NCBI GenBank assembly: GCA_018830465.1 | Contig: JAHJSI010000048.1 | Location: forward strand, 1-33,768 | Origin: Patescibacteria group bacterium | GTDB lineage: Bacteria > Patescibacteriota > Patescibacteriia > UBA2169 | DNA: 33,768 bases | Direction: 5' to 3' | In this document: positions 3,239-33,768 of the stretch, in pieces | Position numbering within the stretch: position 1 is the stretch's first letter | Layout of the letters: each line of letters opens with the position of its first letter | The notes under the pieces: model-generated | Seen by the model: the letters and a program-made list of their open reading frames with translations, nothing else | Database searches by the model: none | What the model was told of the DNA's origin: nothing | Program-made: the position numbers and the translations under genes

Positions 3239-5488
3239 TTATTCTGCGTCTTTTATGAATTTGCATTCTTTGCTGGAACATTTGTATGTATCTTTTGGAC
3301 CGTATACAAGCTGGGAGCCGCATTCTGGACATTTTTCTCCAACAGGTTTTGCAAAGAAAGCTGTTTTGCATGCAGGATATTGGTTGCAGGCGAAAAAGGT
3401 TCTGCCTTTTTTAGATTTTTTTTCTATGATTTCACCTTTGCCGCATTCTGGGCAAGTGACGCCTGTTCCTTTTTCAATGTTTTTTATTCCTTTGCAATCT
3501 GGATATTTTGAACATCCAAGGAACTTGCCGTATCTTCCATGCTTAACCTGCATAGCAGCGCCGCATTTTTCGCATTTTTCATTTGTTGTTTCCACTTCTT
3601 CTGGTTCTCCATCTTCTCCTAATGGCTTTGTGTTCTTGCATTCAGGATAACCTGTGCAAGCTAGGAACCGTCCGAATCTGCCTGTTTTTATAATCATTTC
3701 CTTCCCGCATTTGCCGCATTTTTCATCTGTTTTTTCTTCTGTTAAATTTTTTTTATCTAACGTTTTTGTTTTTTCCATAAGATTTTTTTTAAATGGTTCA
3801 TAAAATTCAGATATTGCCTTTTCCCAATCAAGCTTTCCTTCCGCGATTTCATCAAGCTCATCTTCCATGCGAGCCGTGAATTTGTAATCAACAATTTTTG
3901 GGAAATGCTCAACTAAAATATCAATGACAAGAAAAGCAATGTCAGTCGGCTTTAGGCGCCTGTTTTCAATACGATCAACATATCCGCGGTCAATCACAGT
4001 GCTGATGGTCGGCGCGTAAGTGGAAGGCCGTCCAATTTCATTTTCTTCCAATGTTTTAACAAGGGACGCGTCAGAGTATCTAGCTGGGGGTTCTGTAAAA
4101 TGCTGATTAGGATCAATTTTAGCTGGATCAACTTTTTCATCCTGCTCAAGTTCTGGGAGAATATCTTCTTTTTGAACTGCTTTATAGATTTTCAAAAATC
4201 CATCAAACTTGATTGTTTGGCCTGTTGCCCGGAATGTGTATGTTGCGTCTGTTTTCGCGCTTACATCTATAGATGTGTTATCCATTATTGCTTCTGGCAT
4301 TTGAGACGCGACAGCGCGCCTCCAGATTAAATCATATAATCTGTGCTGGTTTTTATCTAAACTGTGATTAATTATATCAGGGCTTTGAGCGGCTTCCGTG
4401 GGTCTGATTGCTTCATGCGCTTCTTGAGCTGTTTTTGATTTTGTTTTAAATACTCTTGGCTTGTCTAATATATATTCTTTGCCAAACGTTTTTTCTAAAT
4501 ACTGCTTTGCATCGCCCAAAAATTTGCTGGATAAATTCAAAGAGTCAGTGCGCATATATGTGATATATCCTTGCTCATACAATTGCTGCGCTACGCGCAT
4601 TGTCTGCTTTGATGAAAATCCTAGTTTTCTGTTTGCTTCTTGCTGAAGAGTTGAAGTAGTAAATGGGGCATATGGATTTTTTTCGGTTTCTTTTTTCTCA
4701 ATGCGCGTTATTGTATAATCTGCGTCTTTCAGGGCGTCCATGATTTGTTTGGCATGCTTCTCATCCGCAATTTCAAATTTATCCAAAGATCCTTCGTTTA
4801 TTGAATGAAGCTTTGCAGAAAAATATCCTTGAGGAAGATTTTTTGGGTCAAGAGTCGTATTTGCGTCTATAGAGACGCCCCCATGGGGCGTCTTTACAAA
4901 GATAGCATCAATGGTCCAATATTCTTTTGCTTCAAATTGCTTGATTTCACGCTCTCTCTCAACAATTAATCTAACTGCGACTGATTGCACTCTGCCAGCG
5001 CTAAGGCCGCGAGCGACTTTTTTCCAAAGAAAAGGTGATAGCTCATATCCAACTAATCTATCTAAGATTCTGCGCGCTTGCTGTGCGTTTACTCGCTGCA
5101 TGTCAATGTCGCGCGGATTCTTTAAAGATTCATCAATTGCGGATTTTGTAATTTCATGAAAAGTAATTCTTTTTACTTGTTCTTTTTTTGGTTTTAATAG
5201 CTCAACTAAATGCCAAGCAATTGCCTCGCCTTCTCGATCTTCGTCAGTTGCGAAGTAGATATATTTACTATTTTTAGCTGCCTTTTTTAAATCAGCAACA
5301 ACTTTTTTCTTATCCTTGTCTTCCACAACATATGTAGGAGTAAAATGGTCGTCAACATCAATACCCATCTCCTTTTTAGGAAGATCTCGTATGTGTCCGA
5401 ATGATGATTTGATTATGTATCCTTTTCCAAGAAATTTTGTGATTGTCTTGGCTTTAGTTGGGGATTCTACGATTACAAGATTTGACAT
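3239..5488 (-). CDS. topA: DNA topoisomerase I
   Basis: 749-aa ORF. TOPRIM (LVIVESPTKAKTI, DEDREGEAIAWH), catalytic Tyr motif GYITYMRTDS, and four C-terminal Cys4 zinc ribbons (CGKCG..CTGYPEC, CEKCG..CSKYPDC, CPECG..CNQYPAC, CPECG..CSSKEC). Confidence 0.95.
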   Translation of the reverse strand: MSNLVIVESPTKAKTITKFLGKGYIIKSSFGHIRDLPKKEMGIDVDDHFTPTYVVEDKDKKKVVADLKKAAKNSKYIYFATDEDREGEAIAWHLVELLKPKKEQVKRITFHEITKSAIDESLKNPRDIDMQRVNAQQARRILDRLVGYELSPFLWKKVARGLSAGRVQSVAVRLIVEREREIKQFEAKEYWTIDAIFVKTPHGGVSIDANTTLDPKNLPQGYFSAKLHSINEGSLDKFEIADEKHAKQIMDALKDADYTITRIEKKETEKNPYAPFTTSTLQQEANRKLGFSSKQTMRVAQQLYEQGYITYMRTDSLNLSSKFLGDAKQYLEKTFGKEYILDKPRVFKTKSKTAQEAHEAIRPTEAAQSPDIINHSLDKNQHRLYDLIWRRAVASQMPEAIMDNTSIDVSAKTDATYTFRATGQTIKFDGFLKIYKAVQKEDILPELEQDEKVDPAKIDPNQHFTEPPARYSDASLVKTLEENEIGRPSTYAPTISTVIDRGYVDRIENRRLKPTDIAFLVIDILVEHFPKIVDYKFTARMEDELDEIAEGKLDWEKAISEFYEPFKKNLMEKTKTLDKKNLTEEKTDEKCGKCGKEMIIKTGRFGRFLACTGYPECKNTKPLGEDGEPEEVETTNEKCEKCGAAMQVKHGRYGKFLGCSKYPDCKGIKNIEKGTGVTCPECGKGEIIEKKSKKGRTFFACNQYPACKTAFFAKPVGEKCPECGSQLVYGPKDTYKCSSKECKFIKDAE
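4863..4893. repeat. GC-rich overlapping double hairpin inside topA
   Basis: GCGTCT-ATAG-AGACGC (4863-4878) overlaps GACGCCCC-CAT-GGGGCGTC (4874-4892; 8 G/C-rich bp, 3-nt loop). On the minus strand it encodes KTPHGGVSID. It is conspicuously GC-rich in an AT-rich gene. Confidence 0.4.
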
Positions 5489-6810
5489 GTTTCTCTATTG
5501 TTTAATATAAATTTTTCTTTTATCCAATATTTTCGCAATTTACCTGTTAAATAAAGCGAGCCAGTGATGAGAAGCGCGTCATTTGTGCGCAGTTTTTTTA
5601 TTGTCTGCTTCAATGCTTTTAGCGAATCATGTTGAATGGATTTCTTTTTAAGTTTTTTGGCGTCAGCCAAAGGCTGGTCAGCCTCTGGCTGAAATTTTGA
5701 AAGTGTTTCTGGGGCATAAGATGTCCTGTCCGCGGTTTTAAATTCAGTAAATACTATTTTATCTGAATACGGAAGTATTATGCTGATCATTTTGCGCGCG
5801 TCTTTTGTATTGCTAGCAGCAAAGATAGTATATAGTTTATCATATGTCAAATTTTTTAGGTTGTGGACAACGCTTTTCATCTTGTCTGGATTATGCGCGC
5901 CATCAAGTATAATTAATGGATTTTTTTGCATGATTTCAAAGCGGCAAGGGAGAAGTTGTGTGCTTTTTATTGCAGATGAGATAATATTATTTTTAATGCC
6001 AATGTGTTTGGCAATTGCTTTAGCTAATGCTTTGTTTGCTAATTGGAATTTATTGTCTGATTTAATATGATGATATGATGTTTTTTTGCTTTTACAGATT
6101 TGTTTGAAGATTTTTAGAATATGAGGTCTTTTTTCGGTTGTGAAGAAATGCGTATTTAATTTTATAATTCCTGCTTTTTCTTTCGCGATTTTTGGCAATG
6201 TCTTTCCAAGAAGATGCGTATGGTCTAATCCAATATTTGTGCAAGCGCTGATTGATTTTTTAATAATATTTCCAGCGTCATATCTTCCACCGCATCCAAC
6301 TTCTAAAATTACGTAATCGCATTTCATTTTTTTGAAATATAGAATAGAGAGCGCGAAAAAGATTTCAAAATAGCTTGGCCTGCCGTATTTATAATTTTTT
6401 TCTCCGCCCAAGGAGGATCCGCATTGGGCGGACATGTCATTTATAATAGGTTTAACTTCATCAACAAGTTGCGCGAATACAAGAGGATCAATGAGCTTAT
6501 CATCAACCTTAATTTTTTCAATCGAAGTTGTGCAGTATGGGGAAGTAAAGGAGCCAACTTTAAACCCTGCTTTATATAATATGTTATGCAGATACGCTAC
6601 AGTAGAGCCCTTGCCTGATGTGCCGCTTATGTGTATAAAGCGAAAACCTCTCACAGGATTGTGGAGGCGTTTTATCAATTCTTGGGTACGTTTTAAGTAT
6701 TGCTCTGGCTGCGCGCTGTGCTTTTTCATGTATGCCTGGTCATGCGCGCTTGATGCGAGAGTTTCCAGATATTTGACAGCAGAGTAATATTTTTTAAATG
6801 ATTTAGTCAT
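5473..6810 (-). CDS. folC: Mur-ligase family protein, folylpolyglutamate synthase-like
   Basis: 445-aa ORF. P-loop HISGTSGKGST, plus NIGLDH and DGAHNP motifs typical of FolC/Mur ligases. The stop overlaps the topA start by 16 nt. FolC versus another Mur-ligase paralogue cannot be settled by eye. Confidence 0.7.
   Translation of the reverse strand: MTKSFKKYYSAVKYLETLASSAHDQAYMKKHSAQPEQYLKRTQELIKRLHNPVRGFRFIHISGTSGKGSTVAYLHNILYKAGFKVGSFTSPYCTTSIEKIKVDDKLIDPLVFAQLVDEVKPIINDMSAQCGSSLGGEKNYKYGRPSYFEIFFALSILYFKKMKCDYVILEVGCGGRYDAGNIIKKSISACTNIGLDHTHLLGKTLPKIAKEKAGIIKLNTHFFTTEKRPHILKIFKQICKSKKTSYHHIKSDNKFQLANKALAKAIAKHIGIKNNIISSAIKSTQLLPCRFEIMQKNPLIILDGAHNPDKMKSVVHNLKNLTYDKLYTIFAASNTKDARKMISIILPYSDKIVFTEFKTADRTSYAPETLSKFQPEADQPLADAKKLKKKSIQHDSLKALKQTIKKLRTNDALLITGSLYLTGKLRKYWIKEKFILNNRETCQIL
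5663..5692. repeat. 30-nt GC-rich double-hairpin repeat, copy A (in-frame in folC)
   Basis: TCAGCCAAAGGCTGGTCAGCCTCTGGCTGA. 25/30 identical to the prfB copy. Its reverse complement is 26/30 identical to the comEC copy. Encodes QPEADQPLAD in folC (minus strand). Confidence 0.8.
6403..6432. repeat. possible diverged copy of the 30-nt repeat (in-frame in folC)
   Basis: The reverse complement TCCGCCCAATGCGGATCCTCCTTGGGCGGA matches the comEC copy at 20/30 positions. It is 30 nt long and sits in the same codon phase, encoding SAQCGSSLGG versus SARGGPASGW. It also forms a 9-bp stem, TCCGCCCAA/TTGGGCGGA. Confidence 0.35.
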
Positions 6811-30004: not shown

Positions 30005-31231
30005 ATGATTTTTGAGAAACTGCCTAATCATATTAAACAAGCATTAATTATTACTGTAATTATAAGCATTACCGCGGGCGGGCTTGTCGGCGGCATAGTT
30101 GGAATTTTACTTGCTGGATATTCAAGCAAAAATTTATGGCCATATGTGAGTGATTCGCTTGGATTAAATGATCAAATCTCTGATTTTAATCAAAATGGAC
30201 AGAATATCATAAATCAAGCTGTTGTAGAGGACAGCGCCGCGACTCAAGTTGTTGAACAAGCATCAGGCGCGGTTGTTTCTATTATTGTCACACAGGATCT
30301 TTCAGAATTTTATAACAAAACAGGACCAATGTATCTATTTTATTCTATGCCTCCAACAGGAAAACAAGAGATTGGCGGAGGAAGCGGGTTTATTATTACA
30401 ACAGATGGCATGATTGTGACGAACAGGCATGTAGTTGATAATAATAATGCTGAATATACTGTTGTTTTAAACGACGGAACTCAGTATGAAGCCCAAGTCC
30501 TGGCCCGAGATGATCTGAATGATATTGCTATTATAAAGATTGAAGCGGATAATCTGCCTATTTTGGATTTAGGGGATTCTAATTATATAAAAACAGGGCA
30601 AACAGTTATAGCTATTGGAAATTCTTTGGGCGAGTATCGCAATACCGTCACAAAAGGAGTCATATCAGGAATTAATAGGAGGGTTGTTGCTGGAGATAGC
30701 GTCGGTTTTTCAGAAGTGATTGAAGAAGCAGTTCAAACAGATGCTGCTATTAATTCTGGAAATTCTGGAGGTCCTTTGATTGATTTATTTGGAAAAGTTA
30801 TTGGGGTTAATACTGCTGTATCAAGACAAGGGCAGTTGATTGGTTTTGCAATTCCAATAAATAGCGTTAAAAGCGTAATAGATAGCGTGCGTGAATATGG
30901 CAGGATTGTGCGTCCGTTCTTAGGGGTGCGATATGTTTTATTAAATGAAGAAATTGCGAAAGCAAATAATATAATTGATATTAGTTATGGAGCTTTAATT
31001 GTTCGTGGTGAAATATGGACTGATTTGGCGATTGTTCCAGGATCTCCTGCCAATAAAGCGGGAATTGTTGAGAATGACATTATTTTAGAGATTAATGGGG
31101 AGAAAATTACGCAAGAGAATGGTCTGGCTAAAATAATTGCTAAATATAAGCCAAATGACACTGTGCGCTTAAAAGTGTATCATAAAGGCGAGGAAAAAGA
31201 GGTTGAAGCAGTGTTAGTTGAGCGAGAATAA
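30005..31231 (+). CDS. HtrA/DegP-like trypsin-fold serine protease with PDZ domain
   Basis: 408-aa ORF. N-terminal TM segment; catalytic triad contexts TNRHVV, NDIAIIKI and GNSGGPL; PDZ segment GSPANKAGIVENDIILEINGEKI. Confidence 0.9.
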   Translation: MIFEKLPNHIKQALIITVIISITAGGLVGGIVGILLAGYSSKNLWPYVSDSLGLNDQISDFNQNGQNIINQAVVEDSAATQVVEQASGAVVSIIVTQDLSEFYNKTGPMYLFYSMPPTGKQEIGGGSGFIITTDGMIVTNRHVVDNNNAEYTVVLNDGTQYEAQVLARDDLNDIAIIKIEADNLPILDLGDSNYIKTGQTVIAIGNSLGEYRNTVTKGVISGINRRVVAGDSVGFSEVIEEAVQTDAAINSGNSGGPLIDLFGKVIGVNTAVSRQGQLIGFAIPINSVKSVIDSVREYGRIVRPFLGVRYVLLNEEIAKANNIIDISYGALIVRGEIWTDLAIVPGSPANKAGIVENDIILEINGEKITQENGLAKIIAKYKPNDTVRLKVYHKGEEKEVEAVLVERE

Positions 31232-31236
31232 CTATG

Positions 31237-31266
31237 TCAGCCAAGGGCTGACCAGCTTTTGGCTGG
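31237..31266. repeat. 30-nt GC-rich double-hairpin repeat, copy B (intergenic, 5 nt after the htrA-like stop)
   Basis: TCAGCCAAGGGCTGACCAGCTTTTGGCTGG, 25/30 identical to the prfB copy. As + strand RNA it can form a 13-bp stem using G-U pairs. No T-run follows. Confidence 0.8.
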
Positions 31267-31297
31267 CTCTGTAATAGTTTGTAAATTTATATAGATT

Positions 31298-32429
31298 ATG
31301 CAAGATTTAATTAAGAAGTTACAAGAGCTCTTGGGAAAAATTTCTGAGACAGAGAGGTTGCTTTGATATTGACTTGAAAAAGGAAAGAATTATTGAATTA
31401 GAGAAACAAGCAAGCTCTCCCGCATTTTGGGAAAATCAAAAACAAGCGCAAGAGATAACTCATCAGTTATCTGATTTTCGCGATGAAGTGAATACATGGG
31501 AATCACTCTCTCGAGATGTTGTTGGCACTTTGGAAATCGCGCAGGATTTAGAAAAAGAACAAGATGAAGAGCTTGAAAGAGATGTTATAAAAAAGACGGA
31601 GGAGTTGCTTAACAATTTTGAAAGATTAGAGTTTACAGTTTTTTTTCAGGGTAAATTTTCGGCCAAAGGCCGACCAGCCTCTGGCTGGGATGAGCATGGA
31701 GCAATTGTGTCAATTAGCGCTGGAGCAGGCGGAACTGACGCGCAAGATTGGGCAGAAATGCTGGAGCGCATGCTTTTGCGGTATTGCGAGCGCAAGGAGT
31801 TTAAAACGCGCATTCTAGACAGACAGCAGGGCGCAGAAGCTGGAATTAAAAGTTCTACATTTGAAGTAAGCGGCAAGTACGCGTACGCATGGTTAAAATC
31901 AGAATCAGGAGTGCATCGGTTGGTTAGAATATCTCCTTTTGACGCGGATAAGTCCAGGCATACTTCTTTTGCTTTAGTTGATATTATTCCTGATTTGGGC
32001 GATGTTAAGGGCATAGAAATTAAGGATGAAGATCTGCGCGTGGATGTGTTTCGCGCTTCTGGGCATGGCGGGCAGTCAGTGAACACCACAGACAGCGCTG
32101 TCAGAATCGTGCATGAACCAAGCAAAATTGTCGTCACATGCCAAAATGAAAGATCCCAGCAGCAGAACAAGCAGACCGCGATGAAGATTCTGCGGTCGCG
32201 GTTAGCGCAAAAACAAGAACAAGAAAGAGACGCGCAGGAGCGAAGAATTCGCGGTGACGTGAAAAGCGCGGAATGGGGCTCGCAAATCCGCTCTTATGTC
32301 ATACATCCGTATAAAATGGTTAAAGATCATAGGACTAATTTAGAGACATCAGATGTTGATGCAATTCTACGCGGGGAGCTTGACAAGTTCAGCGAATTTT
32401 ATATAAAATGGATTTTTAAGCAAAAGTAA
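31298..32429 (+). CDS. prfB: peptide chain release factor 2, expressed via programmed +1 frameshift (31298-31363 joined to 31365-32429)
   Basis: Frame 0 from ATG 31298 reads MQDLIKKLQELLGKISETERLL, then CTT TGA (31361-31366). The +1 frame continues DIDLKKERIIELEKQ into ORF 31374-32429. SPF tripeptide (RISPFD) and GGQ (SGHGGQSVN) present. Confidence 0.92.
31351..31367 (+). promoter_or_regulatory. RF2 autoregulatory +1 frameshift site
   Basis: SD-like AGAGAGG (31351-31357), 3-nt spacer TTG, slippery CTT, in-frame TGA, then T. Same architecture as E. coli AGGGGG-UAU-CUU-UGA-C. Confidence 0.88.
31659..31688. repeat. 30-nt GC-rich double-hairpin repeat, copy C (in-frame in prfB)
   Basis: TCGGCCAAAGGCCGACCAGCCTCTGGCTGG. 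Codon-phased from its first base; encodes SAKGRPASGW. Confidence 0.85.
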
Positions 32430-32471
32430 ATTCTGTTCTTTTCACATTTATAAAAAGAAGGAGGTGTTAGT

Positions 32472-32732
32472 ATGAGCGTTCAAGCGGTGCATAATGCAAT
32501 CACAGTGGTTCCACTTGGCATGCAGGCAAGAAATAAGGAGGATGCCAAGAGGATTCTCAAAGAGCTGCTCGAAAAAAATGCAACAGGAAAGCTTGAGAAT
32601 CCACTGGAAGATGCTCAGTTGCGCAAGCTGGAACAAGACCTCAAGCGCATCAGCAAGTTGTGGGCGACTCTCTATGGACAACAGACCATTAAGCTGTGGA
32701 TCAGTTTTGCCCGGAGACACGGCATTGTGTGA
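32472..32732 (+). CDS. orphan small protein (86 aa), GC-rich relative to flanks
   Basis: AAGGAGG (32458-32464) lies 7 nt before ATG 32472. Product: MSVQAVHNAITVVPLGMQARNKEDAKRILKELLEKNATGKLENPLEDAQLRKLEQDLKRISKLW... Followed by a strong terminator. No family recognised. Confidence 0.6.
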   Translation: MSVQAVHNAITVVPLGMQARNKEDAKRILKELLEKNATGKLENPLEDAQLRKLEQDLKRISKLWATLYGQQTIKLWISFARRHGIV

Positions 32733-32763
32733 TGTTGACTGATTGTCTGCCAGTGGCGCGTGT

Positions 32764-32804
32764 GAGGCTTTGAATCCAAAATGGATTCAAAGCCTCTTTT
32801 TTTT
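32764..32804 (+). terminator. intrinsic terminator after the 32472 gene
   Basis: Perfect 14-bp stem GAGGCTTTGAATCC (32764-32777) / GGATTCAAAGCCTC (32783-32796), 5-nt loop, then eight T (32797-32804). Confidence 0.85.
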
Positions 32805-32812
32805 GATACAAT
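32804..32812 (+). promoter_or_regulatory. extended -10 element (TGaTACAAT) 6 nt upstream of the comEC ATG, possible leaderless start
   Basis: TGATACAAT at 32804-32812, then ATATAT, then ATG at 32819. Confidence 0.4.
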
Positions 32813-32818
32813 ATATAT

Positions 32819-33768
32819 ATGGAGGTTTCTAAATCAAAAATATTTTTGCTTTGCTTATTGTCATTCGTAATTGGCGTTGGAGTGATGTCGTTTATTTCCG
32901 CCAGAGGCGGACCAGCCTCTGGCTGGGAGTTTTTGGCATCTTTTTATGCTTTTTTATTGTTGGATATTATTGTGTTGATAGTGTTTTGGTCGCATCGCAA
33001 GTACAGAATAACAGCTCTTTTGGGGCTGTTTTTTATTTTAGGCATAGCACGAATGATTTTAGCTCAGCCGAATTTGGAAGATGCTGGCCATATTGCGTAT
33101 TACAACGACCAAGATTTAGTTGTAGAAGGCGTTGTTATTATGGAGCCAGATGTGCGTTTAGATCATCAAAAGTTAACTCTTGAAGTGCGTGGTGTGTCAG
33201 TAAGCGATGATGAAGTCAGTGGACGGCTGCTCGTTAAAACAAATCTATATCCAGAATATAAGTATGGAGAATTGGTGCGCGTCAAATGTGAGATTGAACA
33301 GCCAGAACAAATAGAGGATTTCGCGTATGACAAGTATTTAGCGCGATATGATATTTACAGCGTATGCTGGCGCGGTCAGATCGAAAAGATTGATTCAGGC
33401 AAGGGCAATCCAGTGATGGCTGGCATTTTAGCTGTGAAAATATATTTCATGGATACAATCAATCAAATCATCAGCGAGCCGCATGCCGCATTTCTTGCTG
33501 GTTTATTAGTCGGAGCTAGGCGCGGCATACCTGAATATTTACTAGAAGCTTTCAATCGCACTGGCACAACGCACATTATCGCGATTTCTGGATCTAACAT
33601 TACAATCATCGCAGCAGTCATAATTGGATTTTTACAATTTCTTGGAGTAGCGCGCAAACGCGCGTTTTGGTGGATAAGCGCTGGCATTGTGATATTCGTG
33701 ATTATGACCGGAGCAACCGCGTCAGTTGTGCGCGCTGGCATTATGGGCATCTTTGTCTTGCTTGCTCG
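32819..33768 (+). CDS. comEC: DNA internalisation channel ComEC/Rec2, 5' part (runs off the window end)
   Basis: Absent from the ORF track because no stop is reached. Hand translation from ATG 32819 stays open to 33768: MEVSKSKIFLLCLLSFVIGVGVMSFISARGGPASGWEFLASF...LVKTNLYPEYKYGELVRVKCEIEQP...RTGTTHIIAISGSNITII...TASVVRAGIMGIFVLLA. This is the DUF4131 OB-like segment followed by competence-domain motifs. Confidence 0.85.
   Translation, partial: MEVSKSKIFLLCLLSFVIGVGVMSFISARGGPASGWEFLASFYAFLLLDIIVLIVFWSHRKYRITALLGLFFILGIARMILAQPNLEDAGHIAYYNDQDLVVEGVVIMEPDVRLDHQKLTLEVRGVSVSDDEVSGRLLVKTNLYPEYKYGELVRVKCEIEQPEQIEDFAYDKYLARYDIYSVCWRGQIEKIDSGKGNPVMAGILAVKIYFMDTINQIISEPHAAFLAGLLVGARRGIPEYLLEAFNRTGTTHIIAISGSNITIIAAVIIGFLQFLGVARKRAFWWISAGIVIFVIMTGATASVVRAGIMGIFVLLA
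32897..32926. repeat. 30-nt GC-rich double-hairpin repeat, copy D (in-frame in comEC)
   Basis: TCCGCCAGAGGCGGACCAGCCTCTGGCTGG, 27/30 identical to the prfB copy and in the same codon phase. Encodes SARGGPASGW at ComEC residues 27-36. Confidence 0.85.

Follow-up and report, generated by a model that had tools for sequence, protein, structure and literature searches.

The closest described counterparts of the element studied here are the Rickettsia palindromic elements (RPE), dispersed palindromes of ~105-146 nt whose copies in housekeeping genes are translated as in-frame additions (Ogata et al. 2000, via Delihas 2011, PMC3184786). In this study, we describe a 30-nt double-hairpin repeat of a Patescibacteria group bacterium, one copy of which lies within prfB, the gene encoding release factor 2 (RF2). 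This copy is situated in a stretch of 33,768 nt (contig JAHJSI010000048.1 of assembly GCA_018830465.1, forward strand; hereafter the window), taken from a metagenome-assembled draft genome of 0.62 Mb (624 kb) in 61 contigs. In line with RPE, the repeat is palindromic and dispersed over a reduced genome, with some copies intergenic and others in frame within housekeeping genes, and the orthologues of relatives are without it. In contrast to RPE, which are alphaproteobacterial, it is 30 nt long, consists of two abutting hairpins, resides in Patescibacteria and is unrelated in sequence. Judged by its length, sequence and phylum, the element is not an RPE, although it acts like one. We consider it very probable that RF2 carries here a translated and tolerated insert of selfish DNA whose behaviour resembles that of RPE.

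Other families of short repeats were also considered. REP/REPIN elements, associated with RAYT (Y1) transposases, are extragenic and carry a GTAG/CGTC tag (PMC3116915, Bertels & Rainey 2011; PMC3733652, Di Nocera et al. 2013). Our repeat shares with them a length in the range of 20-40 nt, GC-rich imperfect palindromes and an inverted-doublet architecture, and the genome has one RAYT-like Y1 protein. This assignment was rejected, as two thirds of the copies are intragenic, the tag is absent from the 15 + 46 copies compared, and the repeat that flanks the RAYT-like gene is another one. Likewise rejected was a miniature inverted-repeat transposable element (terminal inverted repeats, target duplication, ~50-400 nt), since the RF2 site shows no duplication and 30 nt is too short. 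Gene-less elements derived from IS200/IS605 have a hairpin at either end, leave no target duplication, insert beside a short fixed target and depend on a Y1 transposase acting in trans. In our repeat, hairpins are present and duplication is absent, the flanks show only a T preference at position -2, and the link to Y1 genes is weak.

Ultra-short hairpins that spread within a genome, nest mutually and occasionally enter genes are represented by the small dispersed repeats (SDR) of cyanobacteria, 21-27 nt long and reportedly described by Elhai and colleagues in 2008, and by the double-hairpin elements of Allomyces and chytrid mitochondria, said to have been described by Paquin, Laforest and Lang in 2000. 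Both belong to other lineages and are unrelated in sequence to the repeat in prfB. The literature we searched contained no account of such elements in Patescibacteria or the Candidate Phyla Radiation, and none of an RPE in a release factor. To an earlier note on this DNA, the analysis adds the scale of the repeat family, its preference of reading phase and the invariance of the RF2 linker. The locus is of value as a clean, well-controlled comparison of filled with empty sites, in a gene that is essential and whose linker is otherwise invariant.

The insert in the RF2 linker

The features of prfB on which the following relies are these:

31659-31688, + strand: copy of the double-hairpin repeat, exactly 30 nt, TCGGCCAAAGGCCGACCAGCCTCTGGCTGG, encoding SAKGRPASGW
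31298-31366, + strand: prfB frame 0, from ATG to the in-frame TGA, encoding MQDLIKKLQELLGKISETERLL and the stop
31350-31367, + strand: programmed +1 frameshift site, comprising GAGAGG (Shine-Dalgarno-like), a 3-nt spacer TTG, and CTT TGA T
31365-32429, + strand: prfB frame +1 body, 354 aa plus stop, with the Pfam domains PCRF (PF03462) and RF-1 (PF00472) on record
31932-31940, + strand: SPF codon-recognition motif of RF2, intact
32067-32075, + strand: GGQ catalytic motif of RF2, intact

The earlier note had proposed that the repeat encodes SAKGRPASGW ahead of the (A/S)G(A/S)GG...DW motif of RF2, and the prfB frame at 31659-31688 confirms it. The decapeptide occupies residues 99-108 counted from the post-frameshift Asp, corresponding to 121-130 of the 376-aa RF2, and its DNA stands out by a G+C content of 70% against 43% for the gene. 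Alignment by HMMER to solved RF2 from B. subtilis (9fy1/6szs) and E. coli (1gqe) opens a single 10-residue gap, at most 2-3 residues from the insert; the E. coli sequence and its shorter spacer, as given in the earlier note, were right. When aligned by MAFFT with 19 relatives, the closest in the same genus (72% identity) and the most distant in the same class, the protein reads F-SAKGRPASGW-D, while F is joined to D across a ten-residue gap in 19 of 19 relatives. At the DNA level, the empty site in nine relatives reads ...AA[AG]TT[TC] followed at once by GA[TC]..., as compared to AAATTT-[30 nt]-GATGAG in the filled site. The borders of the insert are thereby fixed, such that a shift by even one base is impossible, and comparison of filled with empty DNA in the nine relatives identified no target-site duplication. 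A clean insertion of 30 nt, as had been suggested, is what this comparison supports.

The same picture is obtained from a wider sampling. No insert of any kind was found at this site in the 119 nearest RF2 in a collection of 5.8 billion proteins, or in 78 RF2 of other phyla, among them Chloroflexota, Bacillota and Acidobacteriota; in all of the latter, exactly ten residues separate [FYH]D from AG.GG..AQDW. Together with the 19 relatives, these make up 216 comparison RF2, and the length of the linker is fixed in 216 of 216; the prfB studied here is the exception. The length difference that alignment was to reveal is thus real, all others having a linker shorter by ten residues. Nor is the segment conserved in a genome devoid of the repeat: in a relative from the same genus, insert and repeat are both missing. 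The class is an ABY1-type group of Patescibacteria, in which the nearest known relatives of this RF2 are ~72-78% identical, its named neighbours being Kerfeld-, Komeili-, Kuenen-, Falkow-, Uhr- and Magasanikbacteria.

The gene itself gives every sign of being complete. Its ATG at 31298 starts a 22-codon frame that closes at CTT TGA (31361-31366), and the frameshift site has the same layout as in E. coli prfB. Reading in +1 yields an RF2 of 376 aa with its full N-terminus restored, which over residues 6-370 matches solved RF2 at E = 1e-96 (B. subtilis) and 1e-82 (E. coli). Because the frameshift site has been kept, RF2 was called from a TTG at 31374, and its first 25 residues were missed; the long + strand open reading frame (ORF) at 31374-32429 is this automatic-call version. 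It is the sole prfB in the genome, the second match being RF1 with 31% identity. TGA terminates 62 of 300 long ORFs in the genome (21%), and a working RF2 is therefore needed, in agreement with the claim that the insert sits in an essential translation factor.

These data bear directly on the concern that the insert is an assembly artefact or part of a decaying pseudogene. A draft metagenome assembly in 61 contigs invites such a concern, given that repeats can confuse assemblers. Yet the repeat, at 30 nt, is shorter than a read, and DNA identical across the whole of prfB, insert included, is present in two other assemblies from different pipelines (ENA ERZ27247117 and Logan SRR6514730). A pseudogene is opposed by the intact ORF, motifs and frameshift site of what is the only prfB. 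We regard both versions of this explanation as barely conceivable.

Structurally, the insert is predicted to fall where it would do little damage. In an AlphaFold2 model built from a 20-sequence alignment (mean predicted local distance difference test score, pLDDT, of 79), whose best Foldseek matches are RF2 in ribosome-bound structures, residues 96-108 of the 354-aa body have a pLDDT below 50. This is the only long low-confidence stretch in the N-terminal half of the model; it contains the insert at 99-108, follows the helix that ends domain 1 (68-92) and precedes the strand that opens domain 2 (113-119). The modelled insert is probably an exposed, disordered loop at the boundary of domains 1 and 2, the location that had been anticipated. 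Since it would lie on the outside of RF2, between domains, the hinge would be lengthened away from the decoding and catalytic loops, and the insert appears to be harmless to RF2. If translated, it is predicted to be covered by a tryptic peptide reaching across it (for example, GRPASGWDEHGAIVSISAGAGGTDAQDWAEMLER).

In published cryo-EM work, domain 1 of RF2 links the subunits at the edge of the A site, contacts the L11 stalk and is mobile relative to the codon-recognition superdomain (PMC6742477; bioRxiv 10.1101/091256). An adaptive role could therefore be imagined, whereby a lineage-specific extension of the hinge, recruited from the repeat, tunes how domain 1 moves or how it touches the L11 stalk or the small subunit in these reduced ribosomes. 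Such a role would suit a site between mutually moving domains of an essential protein, and a copy that is a perfect double hairpin without decay. However, perfection of the copy also suggests a recent insertion instead of conservation, and the segment is predicted to be disordered. In addition, the same decapeptide-coding element also sits between genes and recurs in over 15 unrelated proteins, whereas the insert is absent from the RF2 of every relative, including those with element-rich genomes. We consider adaptation to be highly improbable.

For the tolerated selfish insert, we propose the following course. A small selfish or mobile element, a GC-rich nested palindrome of 30 nt, would be spreading in this class of Patescibacteria. 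One copy has been inserted into the linker from RF2 domain 1 to the codon-recognition domain 2, where it separates a Phe codon (TTT) from an Asp codon (GAT), with no target-site duplication. Because its length is a multiple of three and it lacks a stop in this phase, the ribosome would read through it, providing RF2 with a flexible decapeptide rich in Gly, Ala, Ser and Pro in a solvent-exposed hinge, away from SPF and GGQ. The insert would be tolerated, as neutral or slightly harmful, and not useful. Selection would act as a filter only, such that intragenic copies persist in loops and in the phase that gives a harmless peptide. From the sequence, we infer that the insert is translated and that RF2 continues to function.

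The repeat family, its hosts and its reading phase

The repeat unit of 30 nt consists of two abutting 15-nt hairpins, each with a 6-bp stem and a 3-nt loop, and its second half approximates the reverse complement of the first, making it a nested palindrome. As RNA, the prfB copy, a perfect double hairpin, folds into two hairpins at -20 kcal/mol; more symmetric copies fold as one hairpin of 13-14 bp, and the repeat hairpins range from -20 to -26 kcal/mol. The third position of the stem varies among copies and its partner base follows (TCAGCC/GGCTGA, TCGGCC/GGCCGA, TCCGCC/GGCGGA, CCAGCC/GGCTGG, CCCGCC/GGCGGG), and column counts over the 15 + 46 copies give the ends as [TC]C[ACG]GCC ... GGC[TCG]G[AG]. 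In the flanks, the only preference is for T two bases outside each end, at position -2 (21/30 and 59/92). A search of 31100-33100 against Rfam returned no family at E <= 1.

The family is far more frequent than chance would allow. A 17-nt core has 5 matches in the window against 0.01 expected, and a 21-nt degenerate pattern has 15 in the genome of 624 kb, with none for its reversed control. A structure-based scan with inspection raised the number of copies in the genome to ~27. Besides the one in prfB, the window holds the following copies:

31237-31266, + strand: intergenic copy, beginning 5 nt after the stop of an HtrA-like gene and ending 31 nt before the prfB ATG
32897-32926, + strand: copy in a ComEC-like gene, in the same phase as in prfB, SARGGPASGW; 27 of 30 positions identical to the prfB copy
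5663-5692, - strand: copy close to the folC 3' end, read as QPEADQPLAD, the second of the tolerated phases
6403-6432, - strand: degenerate copy of the TCCGCC subfamily inside folC, SAQCGSSLGG

The intergenic copy folds as one 14-bp hairpin (z = -4.8), and in the copy of the ComEC-like gene a stem change is compensated (TCCGCC/GGCGGA). Five of the ~27 genome copies fall within the 33.8 kb of the window, three of them (intergenic, prfB and comEC) within 1.7 kb (31237-32926); this clustering suggests local spread or conversion from copy to copy.

Genome-wide, long ORFs contain ~18 of the ~27 copies, and ~9 are intergenic. Hosts confirmed by NCBIfam comprise DNA polymerase I (PolA), NAD-dependent LigA, MetRS, PheT, FolC (two copies) and KsgA/RsmA, together with the ribosomal proteins L3 (two copies), S16 and L23, and by eye we could add IleRS, PEP synthase/PPDK, a class II ribonucleotide reductase, a glycosyltransferase and ComEC. 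In MetRS, the orthologue from the same genus has a different, shorter loop at the repeat site. The copies in ribosomal proteins are at 2733-2762 and 3214-3243 of contig C5, at 4066 of C5 and at 24733 of C6 (L3, L23, S16). One L3 copy is internal and in phase B (see below), the other is in the C-terminal tail; in L23, an N-terminal extension contains half a copy, and S16 carries one in its C-terminal tail.

All intragenic copies, composite ones included, are 3n long and free of stops. Two of them are interrupted: the LigA copy (contig C33, ~4870-4917) is split by a nested in-frame addition of 18 nt (SAKGRP-DLPLGG-ASGW), and the glycosyltransferase copy (C14, 1125-1175) by one of 21 nt (SAKG-SPRCEAG-RPASGW). 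Small elements therefore insert into one another.

Owing to the quasi-palindromic nature of the repeat, both strands give equivalent phases. Their use was counted in this genome and in the long ORFs of G004, a genome of the same family:

Phase A, S-A-[KRQ]-G-[RGW]-[PS]-A-[SL]-G-[WG] (SAKGRPASGW-like): 14 in this genome, 8 in G004
Phase B, QPKADQPLAG-like: 4 in this genome, 7 in G004
Phase C, SQRLTSLWL-like, bulky and hydrophobic: 0 in this genome, 2 in G004

Over both genomes, the totals of 22, 11 and 2 depart from an even expectation with a chi-square of ~17. Such a skew is what would be expected if the copies were translated and phases with harmful peptides were removed by selection.

This pattern helps to assess whether the 30 nt reach the protein at all. 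They might be excised from the mRNA or bypassed by the ribosome, in the manner of the GC-rich 'byp' inserts of Magnusiomyces mitochondria or of T4 gene 60, a notion to which the stable RNA hairpins (-20 to -26 kcal/mol) and the presence of the element in essential genes lend some appeal. Neither the restriction to stop-free multiples of 3 nor the strong skew to phases with harmless peptides would be selected if the copies were never translated, however, and the insert has no matching take-off and landing codons (TTT versus GAT) and no match in Rfam. We find excision or bypass hardly credible.

Distribution across the class and candidate means of spread

Within the family, copies that match the strict pattern are distributed as follows:

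G004: 47
G005: 21
This genome: 15
G002: 6
G010: 4
G007: 3
G003: 1
G006: 1
G001 (same genus) and five others: 0

In the class as a whole, 83 of 151 sampled genomes and 77 of 136 genera contain the repeat, with 1 hit for the reversed-pattern controls. G004 holds 30-mers identical to the prfB copy, while its RF2 is only 63% identical. In G004, moreover, the genes for LeuRS, GyrB, TyrRS and a glycosyltransferase (L033, L040, L057, L069) carry an extended, composite version of the element in frame, encoding KFQVSSFQPKAGQPLADKFQ, and RecG (L061) and Fmt (L035) of this genome have long in-frame stretches that resemble several different stacked hairpin elements. Uneven copy numbers, orthologous sites that are filled in one genome and empty in others, and copies with further inserts nested in them all suggest an element that moves or, at the least, propagates itself.

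Several points weigh against a tolerated selfish insert as the explanation for the prfB copy, and they concern different parts of it. The mobility of the element is deduced from its distribution. The closest known relatives are at ~72-78% identity, and no empty allele from the same species was seen. The invariant length of the RF2 linker means that the site is possibly constrained, and the insert may carry a cost. Finally, phase C is not absolutely excluded, as copies in this phase exist in GluRS and Fmt of G004.

What the locus illustrates is that a translation factor that reads UGA can take up selfish DNA even at a length-invariant linker between domains. Inserts of this kind mark surface loops that tolerate insertion; they also inflate apparent protein divergence and, in these genomes, can lead alignments, trees and domain annotation astray. 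An element of 30 nt with co-varying stems, present in over half of the genomes of a class and with no obvious transposase, furthermore raises the question of how such short DNA is copied.

A candidate for the mover is the one RAYT-like Y1 (IS200-type) ORF of this genome, at 4776-5447 of contig C12 and ~190-220 aa long. It is bracketed by four copies of a different GC-rich repeat of ~32 nt, GTCGCTCCCAGCGGC... / GCGGCAGGGTCGCTCCCAGCGGCCTTGTCGCT (C12, 4560-5518), and the repeat GTCGCTCCCAGCGGC... occurs in six copies genome-wide, two of them on C18, with a tRNA gene between two of the C12 copies. The Y1 ORF and its repeats resemble a small REP-RAYT unit, distinct from the double-hairpin family. 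Between genomes, G001 of the same genus has 4 Y1 genes and 0 elements and G005 has 21 elements and no Y1 gene, and seven genomes with 8-20 copies are without a Y1 gene. Over the 151 genomes, Y1 gene and element show a weak link (odds ratio 2.3, Fisher p = 0.015, uncorrected for phylogeny or genome size). With a different repeat of its own and so weak a class-wide link, Y1/RAYT as the mover is not supported.

Three other ideas were rejected. A longer mobile unit might be read from the flanks that RF2 and MetRS have in common (GKF before the insert, D after it), but these derive from the hosts, as RF2 relatives read GKF directly followed by D and MetRS relatives G[EA]F; at most, these two cases hint at a target preference for ...TTT followed by GA.... 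A DNA-uptake signal was rejected by inference, the copies being clean 30-nt insertions in low number and not motifs built by point mutation. Spread of a protein motif by gene fusion is at odds with the intergenic copies and with the reading of the same DNA in two phases.

We hold it possible, if somewhat short of probable, that the double hairpin is a still-active and class-wide mobile element of ultra-small size, among the smallest known, and that it is copied by an unrecognised enzyme or process and not by the RAYT-like protein of this genome, which has a repeat of its own. If so, the occurrence of identical 30-mers in genera whose RF2 are only 63% identical would reflect recognition by the copying machinery or horizontal spread, and in-frame colonisation of loops, even of length-invariant linkers in essential factors such as RF2, would be a major source of change in protein length in Patescibacteria.

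Directly 3' of prfB, the window contains an ORF of 86 aa (32472-32732) with no Pfam hit on record, and after it a hairpin followed by a T-run (~32765-32805) resembles an intrinsic terminator.
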